A stretch of DNA of 8,419 nucleotides from a virus (Duplodnaviria; Heunggongvirae; Uroviricota; Caudoviricetes). The number at the start of each line of letters is the position of its first letter. Position 1 is the first letter of the stretch. The stretch lies in the IMG/VR virus record IMGVR_UViG_2671181188_000016; one strand, given 5' to 3'. Below the pieces are notes generated by a model that was given only the letters and a program-made list of their open reading frames with translations, was not told the DNA's origin and did not search any database. Shown here one piece after another: positions 1 through 5,684 of this stretch. A program made the position numbers and the translations under genes.

Positions 1-1224
1 ATGAGCAGGGCAATTCATAGACTTAGCGACACTCTTTTACGAAAATTAAGCGGATCACCAACCACAAAAAGCACCTTTTTTAATGATGGTGGCAACCTTA
101 GCGTAAGGCATTCAACCAATGGCCTGTTAACCTGGTATTTCACTTACAGGTCCGGAACTGGTAGGCAGATATCACCTGAACGTCTGAGGCTGGGAAATTA
201 TCCAGATTTGAGCCTGAAAGCAGCCAGGGAAAAAGCGTCGCAATGTCGCGCATGGCTGGCTGAGGGGAAAAATCCGCGCTATGAACTTAATCATGCTGTA
301 CAGGACGCGTTAGCCCCCGTGACGGTTAAGGAAGCGCTCACTTACTGGCTTGAATCGTACGCAAAGGAAAAGCGCACTGACTACGAATCACTGAAAAGCC
401 GGATCAATAAACACATAATTAGCCAGATTGGAGCTATGCCACTGGAAAAATGCGAGCTACGCCACTGGCTGGCCTGTTTTGACCAGCTTGCTAAGCGTAA
501 TCCGGTATCAGCCGGATTTTTGCTACAGGTATGCAAACAGGCGCTTAAGTACTGCCGAAAACGACGATACGCAATCAGCAACGTTCTTGATGATATGGTT
601 GTCGGTGATGTTGGGAAAAAAGCAGAAATAAGCGAGCGCGTACTAACAAACAAGGAGCTTGGGGAATTACTACGCGCCCTTGATGAAAAAATTTACCCAC
701 CGTACTACAGCGCCCTGATTCGCCTCCTGATTGTCTTCGGATGTCGTACCACTGAGCTAAGACGCTCTGAGGTCCAGGAATGGGATTTTAAAGAAATGCT
801 CTGGACCGTGCCGAAAGAACACAGCAAAACGAAGGTAGCAATATTCAGGCCAATACCGGAAGCGATCTTGCCGTTTGTCATGAAGCTGGTGGAGCAGAAC
901 AGGCACACGGGCTTATTGCTCGGAGAACTGAAAGGGCAATCATCCGTATCAGAGTACGGAAGAACGGCACACAGACGCATTAATCAAGCCCCCTGGACGT
1001 TGCACGACATCCGGCACACGTTTACAACGATGCTGAACGATTTAGGCGTGGAACCGCATGTTGTGGAGCAGCTTACCGCGCACCAGTTGCCAGGAATGCA
1101 ACGAGTCTATAATCACTCCCGTTATCTTGATGCAAAACGTGACGCTCTTAATCTATGGGTTGAGCGCCTCGATGTGCTGGCTGGAAATCATGAAAATATT
1201 GTTATGCTGAAGGTGGCCAAATGA
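1..1224 (+). CDS. int: Tyrosine site-specific integrase (P4-type phage integrase family), 407 aa; window starts at its ATG
   Basis: Long ORF from track. C-terminal catalytic-domain motifs typical of tyrosine recombinases: conserved Arg in LIVFGCRTTELRR, HDIRHTF (His-x-x-Arg box), and AHQLPGMQRVYNHSRY with the presumptive nucleophile Tyr. Stop TGA 1222-1224. Internal ORFs on both strands are shadows. Confidence 0.9.
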   Translation: MSRAIHRLSDTLLRKLSGSPTTKSTFFNDGGNLSVRHSTNGLLTWYFTYRSGTGRQISPERLRLGNYPDLSLKAAREKASQCRAWLAEGKNPRYELNHAVQDALAPVTVKEALTYWLESYAKEKRTDYESLKSRINKHIISQIGAMPLEKCELRHWLACFDQLAKRNPVSAGFLLQVCKQALKYCRKRRYAISNVLDDMVVGDVGKKAEISERVLTNKELGELLRALDEKIYPPYYSALIRLLIVFGCRTTELRRSEVQEWDFKEMLWTVPKEHSKTKVAIFRPIPEAILPFVMKLVEQNRHTGLLLGELKGQSSVSEYGRTAHRRINQAPWTLHDIRHTFTTMLNDLGVEPHVVEQLTAHQLPGMQRVYNHSRYLDAKRDALNLWVERLDVLAGNHENIVMLKVAK

Positions 1225-1994
1225 AATTACCTAAAAGACTCTATTATCCGTTACCTGAAGCGGCAGAAAAGTTAGGCTGTGCAATAAAAGATCTTTATCA
1301 TTACGCATATATAGGTGCTCTTAATATTTCTGTATATATACCAAAAATTGATGCTAAAAAATTCAATTTTTCATTATGTCATTTTATCAATGGTTGTAAT
1401 GAGGAAGAATTAATAAAATATCCTTTCAATGATGAATCTGCTGTTTTTGGAAGTAATTTTACAGTTGGTTTAACTGGTGACACTGAATTTTTAGATAGTG
1501 CCATTATTGGTCCTGTAGGGAATTCTATCAAATGTTATTATGTTAGCAGCTTATCAGGGTTTTATTATACTCCGGCATATGTTTTTGCTGATGTCGAATT
1601 TAGCATGAGACAATATATAAAATGTTCTCATCTTACGAATAAGTATGGTGATGATAATCTCATGTATGTTTTTTGTAAGGGTGGTTATGAATTTGATGTT
1701 AACTATTTGTGTGTGATGGCTAGTGATTTAGATAATATAAAAAATACGGGAGACTTCCCGAAGATAACAGAAGATAGCCCAAAAGCATCGTCAAAAAGGA
1801 ATGAGGTTATTTACTCTTTAATTAAACTTATTCCAGAAATGGGTGATGTAGACCTGGACACGGAATCATTACCTAAAATAGCAGATTTAATTGATTCTAT
1901 AGCTGCATCCAGAGGGATAGAATTTCCAAAAACACATTGGCAGACATGGCAAAAGTATTTGGGGCGTGAATCTCAACAAAAACGTAAAAAGTGA
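1221..1994 (+). CDS. Hypothetical 257-aa protein; AT-rich cargo gene start-overlapping int; N-terminus resembles an excisionase/AlpA-like HTH; C-terminal ~200 aa unrecognised
   Basis: ATG at 1221 overlaps the int stop (ATGA); SD-like AAGGTGG about 6 nt upstream. A 257-codon uninterrupted ORF in strongly AT-rich DNA (by eye about one third G+C versus about half in flanking genes) is unlikely by chance. N-terminal LYYPLPEAAEKLGCAIKDLYHYAYIG looks HTH-like. No Walker, nuclease or other catalytic motif recognised. Confidence 0.7.
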   Translation: MKLPKRLYYPLPEAAEKLGCAIKDLYHYAYIGALNISVYIPKIDAKKFNFSLCHFINGCNEEELIKYPFNDESAVFGSNFTVGLTGDTEFLDSAIIGPVGNSIKCYYVSSLSGFYYTPAYVFADVEFSMRQYIKCSHLTNKYGDDNLMYVFCKGGYEFDVNYLCVMASDLDNIKNTGDFPKITEDSPKASSKRNEVIYSLIKLIPEMGDVDLDTESLPKIADLIDSIAASRGIEFPKTHWQTWQKYLGRESQQKRKK

Positions 1995-2023
1995 TATCAC
2001 GTGCTGGTAGTGTGATATCACAC
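1991..2023. promoter_or_regulatory. Tandem palindromic operator-like sites: GTGATATCAC (1991-2000) and GTGTGATATCACAC (2010-2023), centres 21 bp apart
   Basis: Two perfect palindromes read directly from the sequence, spaced two helical turns apart, between the stop of the cargo ORF (which the first palindrome overlaps) and the alpA start. Candidate -10 TAGAAT at 2045-2050 downstream. Confidence 0.45.
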
Positions 2024-2050
2024 AAACGGCGTTTTACTACCGCCTAGAAT

Positions 2051-2085
2051 CGTCCTCGTTCGGCAACGTTCGAGGACGTTTTTTT
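2051..2085 (+). terminator. Intrinsic terminator / attenuator hairpin immediately abutting the alpA ATG
   Basis: Stem CGTCCTCG (2051-2058) pairs with CGAGGACG (2071-2078), 12-nt loop, followed by a run of 7 T (2079-2085). The alpA ATG is at 2086, with no SD between. Confidence 0.6.
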
Positions 2086-2310
2086 ATGAATCAAAATACA
2101 CAATTTCAATCACTATCAGATCGCGTAATCCGTGAGGATGAATGCCGTAAGTTAACAGGAGTGTGCCGCACTACACGCTACGAACTGGAGAAAAAAGGGA
2201 ATTTCCCGTCACGCCGTAATCTGGGTGGTCGTTCAGTAGGTTGGCTGCTTTCCGAGGTTATGGAATGGGTTAAAAGCCGGGATCGTATTAATTCAGGTAA
2301 GGCAGCGTAG
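2086..2310 (+). CDS. alpA: AlpA-family (prophage CP4-57-type) transcriptional regulator / excisionase-like HTH protein, 74 aa
   Basis: Sequence RKLTGVCRTTRYELEKKGNFPSRRNLGGRSVGWLLSEVMEWVKSR matches the AlpA signature (HTH followed by FP...LG.RSVGW..E..EW). Position downstream of int is typical of satellites and cryptic prophages. Confidence 0.85.
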   Translation: MNQNTQFQSLSDRVIREDECRKLTGVCRTTRYELEKKGNFPSRRNLGGRSVGWLLSEVMEWVKSRDRINSGKAA

Positions 2311-2335
2311 GGGGAACATATGACACATAAAACAA

Positions 2336-2355
2336 AGGCGACCTGTGGCGGTCGC
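2336..2355 (-). terminator. Possible minus-strand terminator hairpin between convergent alpA and the RHH-like gene
   Basis: GGCGACC (2336-2342) and GGTCGCC (2349-2355) are inverted repeats with a 6-nt loop. On the minus strand the hairpin is followed by TTTGTTTTAT (plus 2326-2335). No T-run on the plus strand. Confidence 0.3.
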
Positions 2356-2444
2356 CAATGGGAAAACACTAAACATAAGCCCGAACATCATAGCGATTTG
2401 CTGTCTGGTGGGCAATGTGCTCAGTGTGCTGGCTTGCTGGTGGA

Positions 2445-2624
2445 CTATTCCTGCTCTTTGGCCTTGCGGCGCTGGCGGCGTTTGATCTCGCCTTCAAGTG
2501 CCGAAACGATAAATTGCCCAGTGCTTTCGCCTTCTTCCTTTAAATTTTCTACGGCGTCAGCTATTGCATGGGGGACTCGTGCCTCAAGTTTTTTGGATTT
2601 TCCATTAACTGCTTTCGTTGCCAT
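2445..2624 (-). CDS. Small ribbon-helix-helix-like DNA-binding protein, 59 aa from the internal ATG (longest ORF extends to 2807); candidate repressor/regulator
   Basis: Minus-strand ORF; the ATG at plus 2622-2624 has a good SD (AAGGAA, about 7 nt spacing), whereas the longer 120-aa form has a hydrophobic, shadow-like N-extension. KKLEARVPHAIADAVENLKEEGESTGQFIVSALEGEI fits a beta-strand plus two helices as in RHH proteins; basic C-tail. Divergent from a promoter carrying direct repeats. Confidence 0.5.
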   Translation of the reverse strand: MATKAVNGKSKKLEARVPHAIADAVENLKEEGESTGQFIVSALEGEIKRRQRRKAKEQE

Positions 2625-2645
2625 ATCTGATTTCCTTGTTATTAG

Positions 2646-2727
2646 GTGGCTGACAGTATACACACAAGAAAATGGAAAAACACTATTGACGTGGCTGACA
2701 CCTGTTACTAGTATAGTGGCTGACACC
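2646..2727. promoter_or_regulatory. Divergent promoter/operator region: rightward sigma70-like promoter (-35 TTGACG 2686-2691, 17-bp spacer, -10 TAGTAT 2709-2714) within three direct repeats GTGGCTGACA at 2646-2655, 2691-2700 and 2716-2725
   Basis: Near-consensus -35/-10 with 17-bp spacing read from the sequence. The 10-bp repeat occurs three times (copies 2 and 3 extend to GTGGCTGACACC): copy 2 overlaps -35/spacer, copy 3 the predicted start site, copy 1 a leftward -10-like TATACT (plus 2655-2660) upstream of the RHH gene. Confidence 0.5.
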
Positions 2728-2743
2728 TTTATTGAGGTAATCG

Positions 2744-2791
2744 ATGAAAAGACAAAGCCCGCAGGTGCTACCAACACCAACGGGCTTCTAA
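2744..2791 (+). CDS. Possible 15-aa leader peptide (MKRQSPQVLPTPTGF) just downstream of the rightward promoter
   Basis: ATG 2744 preceded by GAGGT with about 5 nt spacing; stop TAA 2789-2791. Too short to call with confidence. Confidence 0.2.
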   Translation: MKRQSPQVLPTPTGF

Positions 2792-2823
2792 CAACCAACG
2801 ATAGCAACAGTATCGAGGTAGCT

Positions 2824-3027
2824 ATGAGAAATCATACCACACACCCGCAAGGGCGGGACTCGCACAACCTGAATAAATACATCTGGCGTTTTCTGGCCCT
2901 GAGTGCCGGAGAATCTCAAATCATCCACGTAACCGCCTGGACGGAACGCGAAGCGCGTAGCCGTTGCCCGTCAGGTTGTGTTGCTGTATTTGTCGCCCGT
3001 ATTCGTCAGGGGGTGTGCCGTGCTTAA
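2824..3027 (+). CDS. Hypothetical small protein, 67 aa; uncertain, may be untranslated leader
   Basis: Downstream part of track ORF 2320..3027; ATG 2824 with GAGGT about 6 nt upstream. Arg/Cys-rich, not obviously protein-like; the upstream part of the track ORF overlaps the minus-strand RHH gene and the promoter and is rejected. Confidence 0.25.
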   Translation: MRNHTTHPQGRDSHNLNKYIWRFLALSAGESQIIHVTAWTEREARSRCPSGCVAVFVARIRQGVCRA

Positions 3028-3633: not shown

Positions 3634-3933
3634 ATGAAACTTAAATATTCTGGCTTAACTGCCAGCGGCAAAACTCGCACTAAATTCATGTGCGGGGATA
3701 TTTACCGCGATAAGTACGGCGGCACGGTAATGATTAAGGGCGTGGAGGAACGGCGCGTAACTTACCGCCGTGAAGGCTACGAATATGATTGCGTTATGCC
3801 TGTTTATCAGTTCAACCGTGATTTTTCTCTGGTACAGGCAGCGCCCCGCAGTAAGCCAACCAGCAGGGAGAAAGCACGCGCCAATATTCAGGAAATAAAA
3901 AAGATGCTTAACGTATTCAGGGGTAAAAAATGA
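3634..3933 (+). CDS. Hypothetical 99-aa basic protein immediately upstream of, and stop-start overlapping, the replication gene
   Basis: ATG 3634 with GGAGA about 9 nt upstream; stop TGA 3931-3933 overlaps the ATG 3930 of the next gene (ATGA). Lys/Arg/Tyr-rich. Its position before the primase gene is where P4 carries epsilon, but no sequence identity is claimed. Confidence 0.6.
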   Translation: MKLKYSGLTASGKTRTKFMCGDIYRDKYGGTVMIKGVEERRVTYRREGYEYDCVMPVYQFNRDFSLVQAAPRSKPTSREKARANIQEIKKMLNVFRGKK

Positions 3934-5684
3934 AACTGGCACCGAACGTAAAAAAACAGCCACGCGGAATAAAACACAAAGACACAGAGGTGATTATTTT
4001 CGCGGGTAGTGATGCGTGGGCACATGCAAAACAGTGGCAGGAGCAGGACGGCCCCGCATCCGGCGATAATGTGCCTCCTGTGTGGCTTGGGCCAAATCAG
4101 CTTGCCGAACTTTATGCACTGCAAATTGTTCCTGATGGAAAAAAACGCGTAAGGCTGTACCAGGCAGGAGAACTGGACTTGGTGGAGACCAAAAAGATTG
4201 GTCAGAAGCTGGCGGCGGCAGGTGTACAGGATGCAAATTTTTACCCCGAAGGAATGCACGTTCAGAAGGTGGAGAACTGGCGCGAATATCTTGCCCGTGA
4301 GCGCCAGAATCTTTCTGATGGTCTGGTCGTTGAGCTTCCGGTAAAGCAAAAGGCGCAACTTTCACAGATGGCGGACAGTGAGCGCGCGCAGATGCTTGCT
4401 GGTCGATTTGATGGCGTTTGCGTACATCCTGAAAGTGAAATCGTTCACGTATGGCGCGGCGGGGTATGGTGTCCGGTCAGCACAATGGAACTTAGCCGCG
4501 AAATGGTGGCGATCTATTCAGAGCACAGGGCCACTTTCAGCAAGCGCGTAATCAATAACGCCGTTGAAGCGTTAAAAGTTATTGCCGAACCAATGGGGGA
4601 GCCGTCCGGCGATTTGCTGCCGTTCGCCAATGGTGCGCTTGACCTGAAAACGGGGGAATTTTCCCCGCACACGCCGGAGAACTGGATCACCACGCACAAC
4701 GGCATTGAGTACACGCCACCAGCACCTGGGGAGAACATCCGCGACAACGCGCCAAACTTTCACAAATGGCTTGATCACGCAGCCGGAAAAGACCCGCGCA
4801 AGATGATGCGTATATGTGCCGCGCTGTACATGATTATGGCGAACCGGTACGACTGGCAGATGTTTATTGAGGCCACCGGAGACGGCGGTAGCGGTAAAAG
4901 TACATTCACACACATAGCCAGCCTTCTGGCAGGGAAACAGAACACCGTAAGCGCGGAGATGACATCACTCGATGATGCAGGAGGGCGCGCGCAGGTTGTC
5001 GGGAGTCGTCTTATCGTCCTGGCTGACCAGCCGAAATATACAGGCGAAGGAACGGGCATCAAGAAAATCACGGGCGGCGACCCCGTGGAAATTAACCCGA
5101 AATATGAAAAGCGTTTCACGGCGGTAATCAGGGCGGTGGTGCTGGCGACCAACAACAACCCGATGATATTCACCGAACGGGCCGGAGGCGTGGCACGTCG
5201 TCGGGTTATTTTTCGCTTTGACAATATCGTTAGCGAGGCAGAAAAGGACAAGGATTTGCCGGAGAAGGTCGCGGCTGAAATCCCTGTGATTATCCGCCGC
5301 TTGCTGGCTAATTTTGCTGACCCTGAAAAGGCACGGGCTTTATTACTGGAACAGCGCGACGGTGATGAAGCACTGGCGATAAAGCAACAGACAGATCCGG
5401 TTATTGAGTTTTGCCAGTTCCTGAATTTTCTGGAGGAAGCGCGCGGCCTGATGATGGGTGGCGGTGGCGATTCCGTGAAGTACACGACCAGAAACAGCCT
5501 TTACCGCGTCTATCTGGCGTTTATGGCATACGCAGGAAGAAGCAAGCCGCTAAACGTGGCTGATTTCAGCAAGGCCATGAAGCCAGCGGCGAAAGTTTAC
5601 GGACATGAATATATTACGCGAAAAGTTAAGGGAGTAACGCAGACCAACGCAATTACAACTGATGATTGCGACGCGTTTTTATAA
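3930..5684 (+). CDS. Replication initiator: primase/helicase-type protein with P-loop NTPase domain (P4 alpha / D5-like, SF3 helicase class), 584 aa
   Basis: Walker A motif ATGDGGSGKST and a downstream hydrophobic stretch ending in Asp (RLIVLAD, Walker B-like) read from the translation. Size and position (followed by an iteron array) match satellite pri-rep genes. The numerous minus-strand ORFs inside it are shadows. Confidence 0.85.
   Translation: MKLAPNVKKQPRGIKHKDTEVIIFAGSDAWAHAKQWQEQDGPASGDNVPPVWLGPNQLAELYALQIVPDGKKRVRLYQAGELDLVETKKIGQKLAAAGVQDANFYPEGMHVQKVENWREYLARERQNLSDGLVVELPVKQKAQLSQMADSERAQMLAGRFDGVCVHPESEIVHVWRGGVWCPVSTMELSREMVAIYSEHRATFSKRVINNAVEALKVIAEPMGEPSGDLLPFANGALDLKTGEFSPHTPENWITTHNGIEYTPPAPGENIRDNAPNFHKWLDHAAGKDPRKMMRICAALYMIMANRYDWQMFIEATGDGGSGKSTFTHIASLLAGKQNTVSAEMTSLDDAGGRAQVVGSRLIVLADQPKYTGEGTGIKKITGGDPVEINPKYEKRFTAVIRAVVLATNNNPMIFTERAGGVARRRVIFRFDNIVSEAEKDKDLPEKVAAEIPVIIRRLLANFADPEKARALLLEQRDGDEALAIKQQTDPVIEFCQFLNFLEEARGLMMGGGGDSVKYTTRNSLYRVYLAFMAYAGRSKPLNVADFSKAMKPAAKVYGHEYITRKVKGVTQTNAITTDDCDAFL

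Follow-up and report, generated by a model that had tools for sequence, protein, structure and literature searches.

An undescribed protein family at the int-alpA junction of an Escherichia coli phage satellite and its relatives, with twin palindromes that covary with its C-terminal domain

Known control of alpA and the locus under study

In Gram-negative phage-inducible chromosomal islands (PICIs), the helper phage switches on transcription of alpA via an unidentified inducer, and no repressor was known when these elements were described in 2018 (PMC6092414). Induction of alpA is likewise helper-dependent in EcCIMP1 (PMC11773190), and we found no later paper that settles the question of the alpA inducer or repressor in Gram-negative PICIs. 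Stl of Staphylococcus aureus pathogenicity islands (SaPIs) and Rpr of Gram-positive PICIs adjoin int, are made at rest and are modular; the variable part of Stl binds a helper-phage protein, and alleles differ between islands (PMC6092414). The present analysis concerns an 8,419-nt stretch of viral DNA, IMG/VR record IMGVR_UViG_2671181188_000016, which is called the window throughout and is a PICI-type phage satellite of Escherichia coli. Between its integrase gene (int) and alpA lies an open reading frame (ORF) at 1221-1994 on the plus strand, the 257-aa product of which is named X here. The X family is previously undescribed. X is probably a master-switch regulator of the satellite that acts with its own cognate operators.

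The resemblance of X to Stl and Rpr is one of proposed regulatory logic, with no sequence or structural homology to either protein found in X. Both kinds of protein are encoded between int and the genes that start the cycle, both are modular, and both vary between alleles; expression in the resting state is a further shared trait that is proposed for X. In the satellite, X lies beside int, and the candidate operators upstream of alpA covary with its C-terminal domain. Comparison with the proteins AlpA, Vis and excisionase (Phage_AlpA PF05930, HTH_17) gives a different picture. These are small single-domain proteins of ~55-90 aa, whereas X has 257 aa and three structured regions. The winged-helix fold is common to both, but X produces no profile match, its putative DNA-reading helix is acidic and variable, and a real alpA gene stands immediately 3' of it. 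Immunity modules of temperate phages offer another parallel, in that a DNA-binding domain (in X, a putative one) and its palindromic operators diversify jointly into discrete classes (A-E for X) and are swapped as cassettes between flanks that stay conserved. Unlike those modules, X has no CI/Cro-type helix-turn-helix or divergent promoter pair, and only two operator copies are present, located downstream of the gene rather than upstream. The gene in the equivalent slot of a studied PICI, EcCIMP1_002, was considered as a counterpart and set aside, as it encodes a different and much smaller protein (PMC11773190).

Twin palindromes upstream of alpA covary with the C-terminal domain of X

Two perfect copies of the palindrome GTGATATCAC precede alpA in the window. 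The first (1991-2000) contains the TGA stop codon of X. An earlier sequence-only reading of this DNA had noted that the ORF ends on an operator-like palindrome, which is correct, and that palindrome is one of two copies. The second copy (2012-2021) lies 21 nt away, centre to centre. Counted from the alpA start site proposed below, the centres fall at about -61.5 and -40.5, the latter at the usual place of a -35 box. Even with one mismatch allowed, the window contains no further match. The chance expectation is 0.12, and a count of two was reached by 1 of 200 shuffles.

Conservation of the pair follows the C-terminal domain. Every locus that encodes the canonical form of this domain (ending in ...TWxKYLGR) carries two GTGAwwTCAC palindromes starting from the stop codon. 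Class-A loci from E. coli, Klebsiella, Salmonella, Providencia, Pantoea and metagenomes all keep the pair, although the DNA separating the two copies shows no such conservation. The geometry is nearly constant. In 20 of the 22 scored loci the two centres are 20-22 nt apart, and the alpA ATG follows the centre of palindrome 2 by 65.5-70 nt in classes A-D (18 of 22 loci, with the ATG correctly located). Members of the family with other C-terminal domains carry different twin palindromes at the equivalent place, namely GGAATATTCC, GGrAATTyCC, AAACTTTCAAAGTTT or CGGAATT-N5-AATTCCG. Within this set, TGGAATATTCCA occurs twice in one type, and in another TGGAAATTTCCA occurs twice, or GTGGGAATTCCCAC is present, inside the coding 3' end. 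In total, there are at least five operator classes (A-E).

The strength of this association differs sharply between the parts of the locus. Across 23 loci, similarity in the C-terminal 60 aa of X predicts operator class with an area under the curve (AUC) of 1.00. The AUC is 0.56 when the N-terminal 45 aa are used instead, 0.72 with the AlpA core and 0.73 with Int. A natural swap illustrates the point: loci L128 and L075 have AlpA proteins that are 96% identical and integrases that are 92% identical, but the X C-termini share only 7% identity, and the operator classes differ. Loci that lack X and encode AlpA proteins 86-92% identical have no palindromes.

Other origins for the palindromes were considered and rejected. 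They are unlikely to be AlpA sites, since loci with 86-96% identical AlpA have either none or another class. Nor are they likely sites for the N-terminal winged helix, given the AUC of 0.56 and recognition-helix positions that vary within class A. A sequence shared with helper phages was likewise rejected on an exact-match scan of IMG/VR. The scan returned about 40 matches from a single unrelated family of phages (35-60 kb, low G+C, iteron arrays present) and placed the twin palindromes in no enterobacterial-type phage contig; the non-coding matches of enterobacterial-type G+C all adjoin X. A palindrome scan of GTDB returned mostly unrelated repeats.

Two side observations concern the palindromes themselves. 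In L128 (~2190-2249), and at the equivalent places in L129, L114 and L127, the TGGAAATTTCCA pair sits within the coding 3' end and encodes a repeated EISK-type peptide, so that operator and protein tail are the same DNA in this type of locus. The iteron-bearing viral contigs (L134, L137-L143, L146-L152 and ~30 IMG/VR loci; 35-60 kb, G+C 0.39-0.41) contain iteron-like (G)TGATATCA(C) arrays beside GTGCCTTATATGTCAATAT motifs that are also repeated. These contigs have no relationship to the satellite and came to light solely through the shared 10-mer.

The int-X-alpA slot and its cassette

The ATG of X overlaps the stop codon of int as ATGA at 1221-1224, in agreement with the earlier reading, and a Shine-Dalgarno-like AAGGTGG at 1210-1216, inside the 3' end of int, is kept in homologous loci. 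This arrangement is general. Among X loci with enough flanking sequence, 36 of 36 have a co-oriented integrase gene as the immediate upstream neighbour, usually with an overlap of 4-8 nt, and alpA follows 60-170 nt downstream in 42 of 42. The loci amount to about 23 distinct alleles from E. coli, Klebsiella, Salmonella, Providencia, Pantoea, Yersinia-type and metagenomic satellites. Members of the family were seen only in the int-X-alpA position, in chromosomal satellites. The backbones around them vary, including full capsid-forming satellites (with capsid, protease and portal genes), Rha/ProQ/PerC elements and RepA-type helicase elements.

Variability of the slot among related satellites, which the earlier reading had proposed as a check, is evident. 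In related E. coli satellites, the int-alpA slot holds a member of the X family, an unrelated DUF6387 protein or a gene-free spacer of 420 nt. The DUF6387 slot protein of E. coli A34 (L013:2022-3017) has 331 aa, a G+C content of 0.32 and an ATGA overlap with int. Because this protein fills the equivalent position, the slot accepts at least two AT-rich, int-coupled gene families. X and the DUF6387 proteins thus share position, start-codon overlap, low G+C and an alpA hairpin downstream, but their sequences are unrelated and the DUF6387 locus has no twin palindromes upstream of alpA. A distant relationship to DUF6387 (PF19924) was ruled out for X by an hhalign probability of 0.2; the DUF6387 profile matches neither X nor the 9 homologues scanned, and the L013 slot protein scores 1.4e-25.

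The boundaries of the exchanged segment can be read from the closest backbone relatives, L014 and L016. Both occupy the same cspD-clpS site, are of the empty-slot type and show 91-94% DNA identity to the window. Homology in blastn to L014 and L016 breaks at nt 1203 and restarts at nt 2118, which indicates that X arrived as a cassette. The exchangeable cassette (1204-2117, plus strand) comprises the last 7 codons of int, X, the twin operators, a -10-like hexamer, a hairpin and the first 11 codons of alpA. It replaces the entire alpA control region of the closest relatives. At its 5' end (1204-1224), the cassette rewrites the last 7 int codons into a ribosome-binding site and the overlapping start of X; integrases of the empty-slot type (L014:2005-2040) end in a different C-terminal tail and, at 412 aa, exceed that of the window by 5 aa.

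Base composition bears on the same question. X has a G+C content of 0.323, with 0.213 at third codon positions (GC3), whereas non-overlapping 774-nt segments elsewhere have a mean of 0.482 (standard deviation 0.034) and a minimum of 0.420; the lowest-G+C 774-nt segment of the whole sequence begins at 1185. The compositional contrast described from the sequence is therefore real. Its interpretation as evidence of separate acquisition needs revision. Low G+C is a property of the X family in every host examined, with values of 0.28-0.46 against flanks of 0.38-0.55; in isolate and assembly loci it is 0.28-0.39 against 0.35-0.54, and in IMG/VR loci up to 0.46 against 0.42-0.55. Being family-wide, it is not the mark of a single recent acquisition. 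Separate arrival from the backbone is supported instead by the cassette boundaries.

Family membership, domain architecture and modular evolution of X

X belongs to no described family, and the family itself is small. Profile and structure searches (Pfam, NCBIfam, PADLOC, PHROGs and PDB) place it nowhere, as the initial assignment of unknown function had anticipated. In Pfam, no family matches the 257-aa protein at E <= 0.1, which leaves PF05930 and PF12728 unmatched, while the neighbouring alpA product scores 3.4e-16 in the same search. NCBIfam and PHROGs give no usable match, the PDB sequence profile search with X is empty, and the sole match in PADLOC (PADLOC-DB 2.0) is mad1, with an E value of 0.015 over residues 8-34 in the winged-helix region. 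No effector-like or enzymatic domain was found in X. Relatives number 84 by exhaustive phmmer among 1.84 billion representatives and 19 by a word-indexed search of 5.8 billion sequences, and a profile search gives 29 clusters. All are hypothetical proteins without Pfam domains, none of them named or annotated, from Escherichia, Salmonella, Klebsiella, Providencia, Yersinia, Pantoea and metagenomes. A tblastn search with X gives 0 matches in 50,697 phage records and a single weak match of 41 N-terminal residues (E 0.008) in 72,556 plasmids. GTDB genomes scanned by peptide pattern yielded no relatives.

AlphaFold models of X (predicted local distance difference test, pLDDT, of 78 for the full length and 82 for residues 46-257) consist of an N-terminal winged helix, a beta-rich middle domain, a disordered linker at 178-186 and a four-helix C-terminal domain. 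The N-terminus had been described as an excisionase/AlpA-type helix-turn-helix, and this holds at the level of fold only. Residues 1-45 (nt 1221-1355, plus strand) form an Xis/MerR-type winged helix that is kept across all operator classes, with a putative recognition helix that is variable and acidic, but neither Phage_AlpA nor HTH_17 gives a profile match. The recognisable fold is limited to the first ~55 residues, and it matches excisionases and recombination directionality factors (RDFs), including Pukovnik Xis, RdfS and the GIsul2 excisionase.

For the ~200 aa that follow, the lack of any known match stands, as neither the middle beta domain nor the C-terminal helical domain has a structural match in PDB or BFVD. 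What was taken for one region is, however, two domains joined by a low-confidence linker. The middle domain (residues 46-175; nt 1356-1745, plus strand) is hypervariable, acidic and beta-rich and is the proposed sensor part. The linker (residues 176-186; nt 1746-1778, plus strand) has a pLDDT <50 at residues 178-186, and a recombination breakpoint lies just 3' of it, at ~nt 1800. The C-terminal domain (residues 187-257 and the stop codon; nt 1779-1994, plus strand) is helical, has a pLDDT of ~96 and is the candidate for operator binding. The acidic tail reported earlier does not exist as such: the last 22 residues are basic (net +6), and the acidic patch is located at residues 206-235.

The three regions evolve differently. 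Pairwise identity among 51 main-class members has a median of 43% in residues 1-45, 17% in residues 46-175 and 47% in residues 187-250, and the median net charge is -9 for the middle domain and +3 for the basic C-terminal domain. Few middle-domain residues are invariant (G113, F114, E126 and L163). Compared with L005 (Salmonella) and L010 (E. coli), the window shows 40-55% DNA identity over nt 1221-1800 and 96-99% from nt 1801 on, through the palindromes. Because this breakpoint coincides with the boundary between linker and C-terminal domain, the N-terminal and middle parts are exchanged as one unit, and the C-terminal domain is kept with the downstream DNA.

The putative alpA promoter and the leader hairpin

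The putative alpA promoter is marked by a -10-like hexamer, TAGAAT (2045-2050, plus strand), with no -35 match. A hexamer of the nAnAAT type abuts the hairpin at the equivalent place in most loci, and the DUF6387 locus has a TTGCTT-17 nt-AAAAAT arrangement there. Judged from the hexamer, transcription of alpA would start ~7 nt past the hexamer, near nt 2057, from which the palindrome positions given above are counted.

Directly after the hexamer, the leader folds into a hairpin (2051-2078, plus strand) followed by a run of seven T residues (to 2085). The 5' arm is CGTCCTCG (2051-2058) and the 3' arm CGAGGACG (2071-2078), and the latter includes the alpA Shine-Dalgarno sequence GAGGA (2072-2076). 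In the E. coli versions, the hairpin is followed by the T7 run and then by the ATG. RNAfold assigns -12.4 kcal/mol to the hairpin in the window and -10 to -18 kcal/mol in other loci. Over 11 loci, 98.7% of the cells of the 7-bp stem are paired and 6 of the 7 pairs show compensatory changes; the covariation score was reached by 0 of 500 shuffles and lies above every slid control. The U.G wobbles on the sense strand suggest that the hairpin forms in RNA. X loci and the DUF6387 locus have it; empty-slot loci lack it. The hairpin matches no Rfam family, and the consensus promoter and terminator scan missed it because the loop exceeds the limit of that scan.

With a start site near 2057, the 5' arm would be absent from transcripts initiated at the promoter and present in int-X transcripts that read through. 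Since the 5' arm precedes the proposed start site, only transcripts derived from upstream would sequester the alpA ribosome-binding site. This geometry suggests that only int-X read-through transcripts are silenced or terminated. A similar device was reportedly described by Davis, Simons and Kleckner in 1985 for IS10, as 'fold-back inhibition' of transposase translation from read-through transcripts. The likeness is one of geometry only, with the Shine-Dalgarno sequence in the 3' arm and the 5' arm upstream of the presumed start site. Compared with IS10, the hairpin and T7 run of the E. coli versions also resemble an intrinsic terminator.

Proposed regulatory mechanism

These observations can be combined in a model to which we give an even chance, namely that X is a satellite-specific modular transcription regulator that gates alpA and carries an exchangeable sensor part. 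In the resting state, X would be made together with the integrase, presumably from a shared transcript. The C-terminal domain (residues 187-257) would bind both GTGATATCAC palindromes at the alpA promoter, and residues 1-175, comprising the winged helix and the hypervariable acidic beta domain, would serve as the exchangeable input module. This module may read a helper-phage cue and thereby decide whether alpA fires, with the alpA product then switching the island on. The hairpin would hold the alpA ribosome-binding site, such that int-X read-through yields no AlpA, and transcripts from the alpA promoter, which are predicted to start within the 5' arm, would escape it. The sign of regulation could be either of two. 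X could act as a repressor that, as in Stl, is released by a phage protein; the hypervariable middle domain (17% median identity) is the one indirect hint of such binding, and a repressor fits the need for alpA to stay silent at rest and the immunity-like diversification of operator classes. X could also be a conditional class-II-type activator, which fits the positions of the palindromes and the missing -35 element.

A more specific version of the model is possible, though we regard it as doubtful. In a subset of Gram-negative PICIs, X might act as the helper-phage sensor that has so far been missing, doing the work of Stl with previously unseen folds, and classes A-E might correspond to 'immunity groups' of satellites. 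The N-terminal and middle module would then bind a helper-phage protein and set helper specificity, and the class-specific twin operators would let the C-terminal domain activate or silence the alpA promoter.

Evidence for and against regulation by X

The evidence for a regulator consists of synteny, operator conservation, covariation with the C-terminal domain, fixed geometry, modularity, cassette boundaries and hairpin covariation, together with the published helper control of alpA through an inducer yet to be named (PMC6092414). Several observations weigh against it. The coding region of the C-terminal domain adjoins the operators, and overlaps them in class B, so part of the covariation could be simple linkage; a counterpoint to pure linkage is that class-A palindromes stay perfect when C-terminal identity drops to 33-50% and the neighbouring DNA is unalignable. 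Iteron arrays and coding repeats are among the unrelated settings that likewise contain exact twin copies of GTGATATCAC. Many close relatives, with empty slots or DUF6387 genes, work without X, and X is for that reason not essential to the satellite life cycle. Finally, a consensus scan reports no complete sigma-70 promoter at alpA, and the start site and geometry are read from the -10-like hexamer alone.

Linkage also enters the proposal that the palindromes are bound by another factor, whether a helper-phage or host regulator or AlpA, with X having an unrelated role. The operators lie 0-30 nt from the C-terminal coding region or inside it and are consequently inherited with it, the C-terminal fold is not recognisably DNA-binding, and AlpA positively autoregulates its own promoter (PMC6092414). 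This proposal is nevertheless improbable in our assessment, because AlpA identity does not follow operator class (the AUC of 0.72, and the 96%-identical AlpA pair with different operators), class-A palindromes persist across C-terminal domains and flanking DNA that have diverged as described, and the IMG/VR scan places them next to X rather than in enterobacterial-type phages. An Xis-like recombination directionality or integration accessory factor, translationally coupled to int, would account for the N-terminal fold, the 4-nt overlap and the invariant adjacency to int. We consider such a role very improbable. Against it stand a putative recognition helix that is acidic and variable, a protein four times as large as an Xis, and the finding that AlpA already supplies excision in studied PICIs (PMC6092414, PMC11773190). 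Moreover, the only conserved DNA sites linked to X adjoin alpA, 2 kb from the att end, and integrases 91% identical to that of the window work without X.

The sequence-only reading had described X as a cargo gene and offered a DNA-binding sensor/effector, an abortive-infection factor and a novel regulator of island induction as options. A single-gene defence or abortive-infection sensor-effector in the known 5' accessory hotspot of PICIs, with palindromes that are incidental or serve local control, agrees with a slot that holds X, a DUF6387 protein or nothing, and with reports of immune systems located at either end, 5' or 3', of PICIs (PMC11364771). Very low G+C, cassette-like exchange and a hypervariable middle domain are likewise typical traits of arms-race genes. 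On the other hand, PADLOC offers only the weak mad1 match (E 0.015), no enzymatic or effector-like domain was found, and invariant positions in the middle domain are few. The family was never found outside int-X-alpA, nor in phages or plasmids, which sets it apart from typical defence genes, and its cassette includes the alpA promoter region, with operators that covary with X. Free-standing defence cargo is accordingly an unlikely description of X, and of the options offered at the outset it is the regulator of island induction that the evidence favours.

Significance for satellite biology

Helper-phage sensing by Gram-negative PICIs is an open question, and the X family offers a concrete and cheap test for a subset of these satellites. 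The traits behind that test are confinement to the int-alpA junction, travel with the alpA promoter and a hypervariable input domain. The interest of X, moderate to high, lies in making part of that question directly testable. If the model is true, orthogonal switch parts could be drawn from the natural domain-swap alleles and from the operator classes, of which there are at least five. The alpA leader hairpin, apparently proof against read-through, would be a separate regulatory device.

Other features of the island and its relatives

The window has the traits of a Gram-negative PICI: co-oriented int, alpA and a D5/P4-type primase gene, the absence of tail and lysis genes, a size within ~8-17 kb and a fixed chromosomal site, here between cspD/yljB and clpS. 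Its Pfam matches comprise int, AlpA, D5_N/DUF5906/Pox_D5, Terminase_2 and Phage_capsid. The tyrosine integrase (407 aa; 1-1224, plus strand) matches Phage_integrase and Arm-DNA-bind_3. The alpA gene (74 aa; 2086-2310, plus strand), which accounts for the Phage_AlpA match at E 3.4e-16, is the master activator gene of the satellite (PMC6092414, PMC11773190). Downstream of it are the D5/P4-type primase gene (3930-5684), a DUF4222 gene, a small terminase gene and a capsid gene. The IMG/VR contig UViG_2534681991_000035 is 100% identical to the window over the stretch compared. Islands between cspD/yljB and clpS in E. coli O157:H7, O103:H2, O121 and O145:H28 are 98.6% identical, and X is annotated there as a hypothetical protein (WP_000775337.1).

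The small terminase gene and a 310-aa capsid gene of the island are covered by 7487-8419 of the window together with L001:15495-17279. The island of E. coli ERL06-2503 (L001) has no portal, protease or large terminase gene ahead of the chromosomal clpS, whereas the Klebsiella relatives (L002) encode a 387-aa capsid protein together with protease and portal. With these three genes absent in ERL06-2503, the island is not a complete capsid-forming PICI like that of Klebsiella. Downstream of alpA, a long plus-strand ORF in the mechanical listing (2320-3027) is probably no gene. Annotation of RefSeq relatives places two genes in this region, an antisense YlcI/YnfO-family gene (2445-2624, minus strand) and an Icd-like cell-division-inhibitor gene (2824-3027, plus strand).

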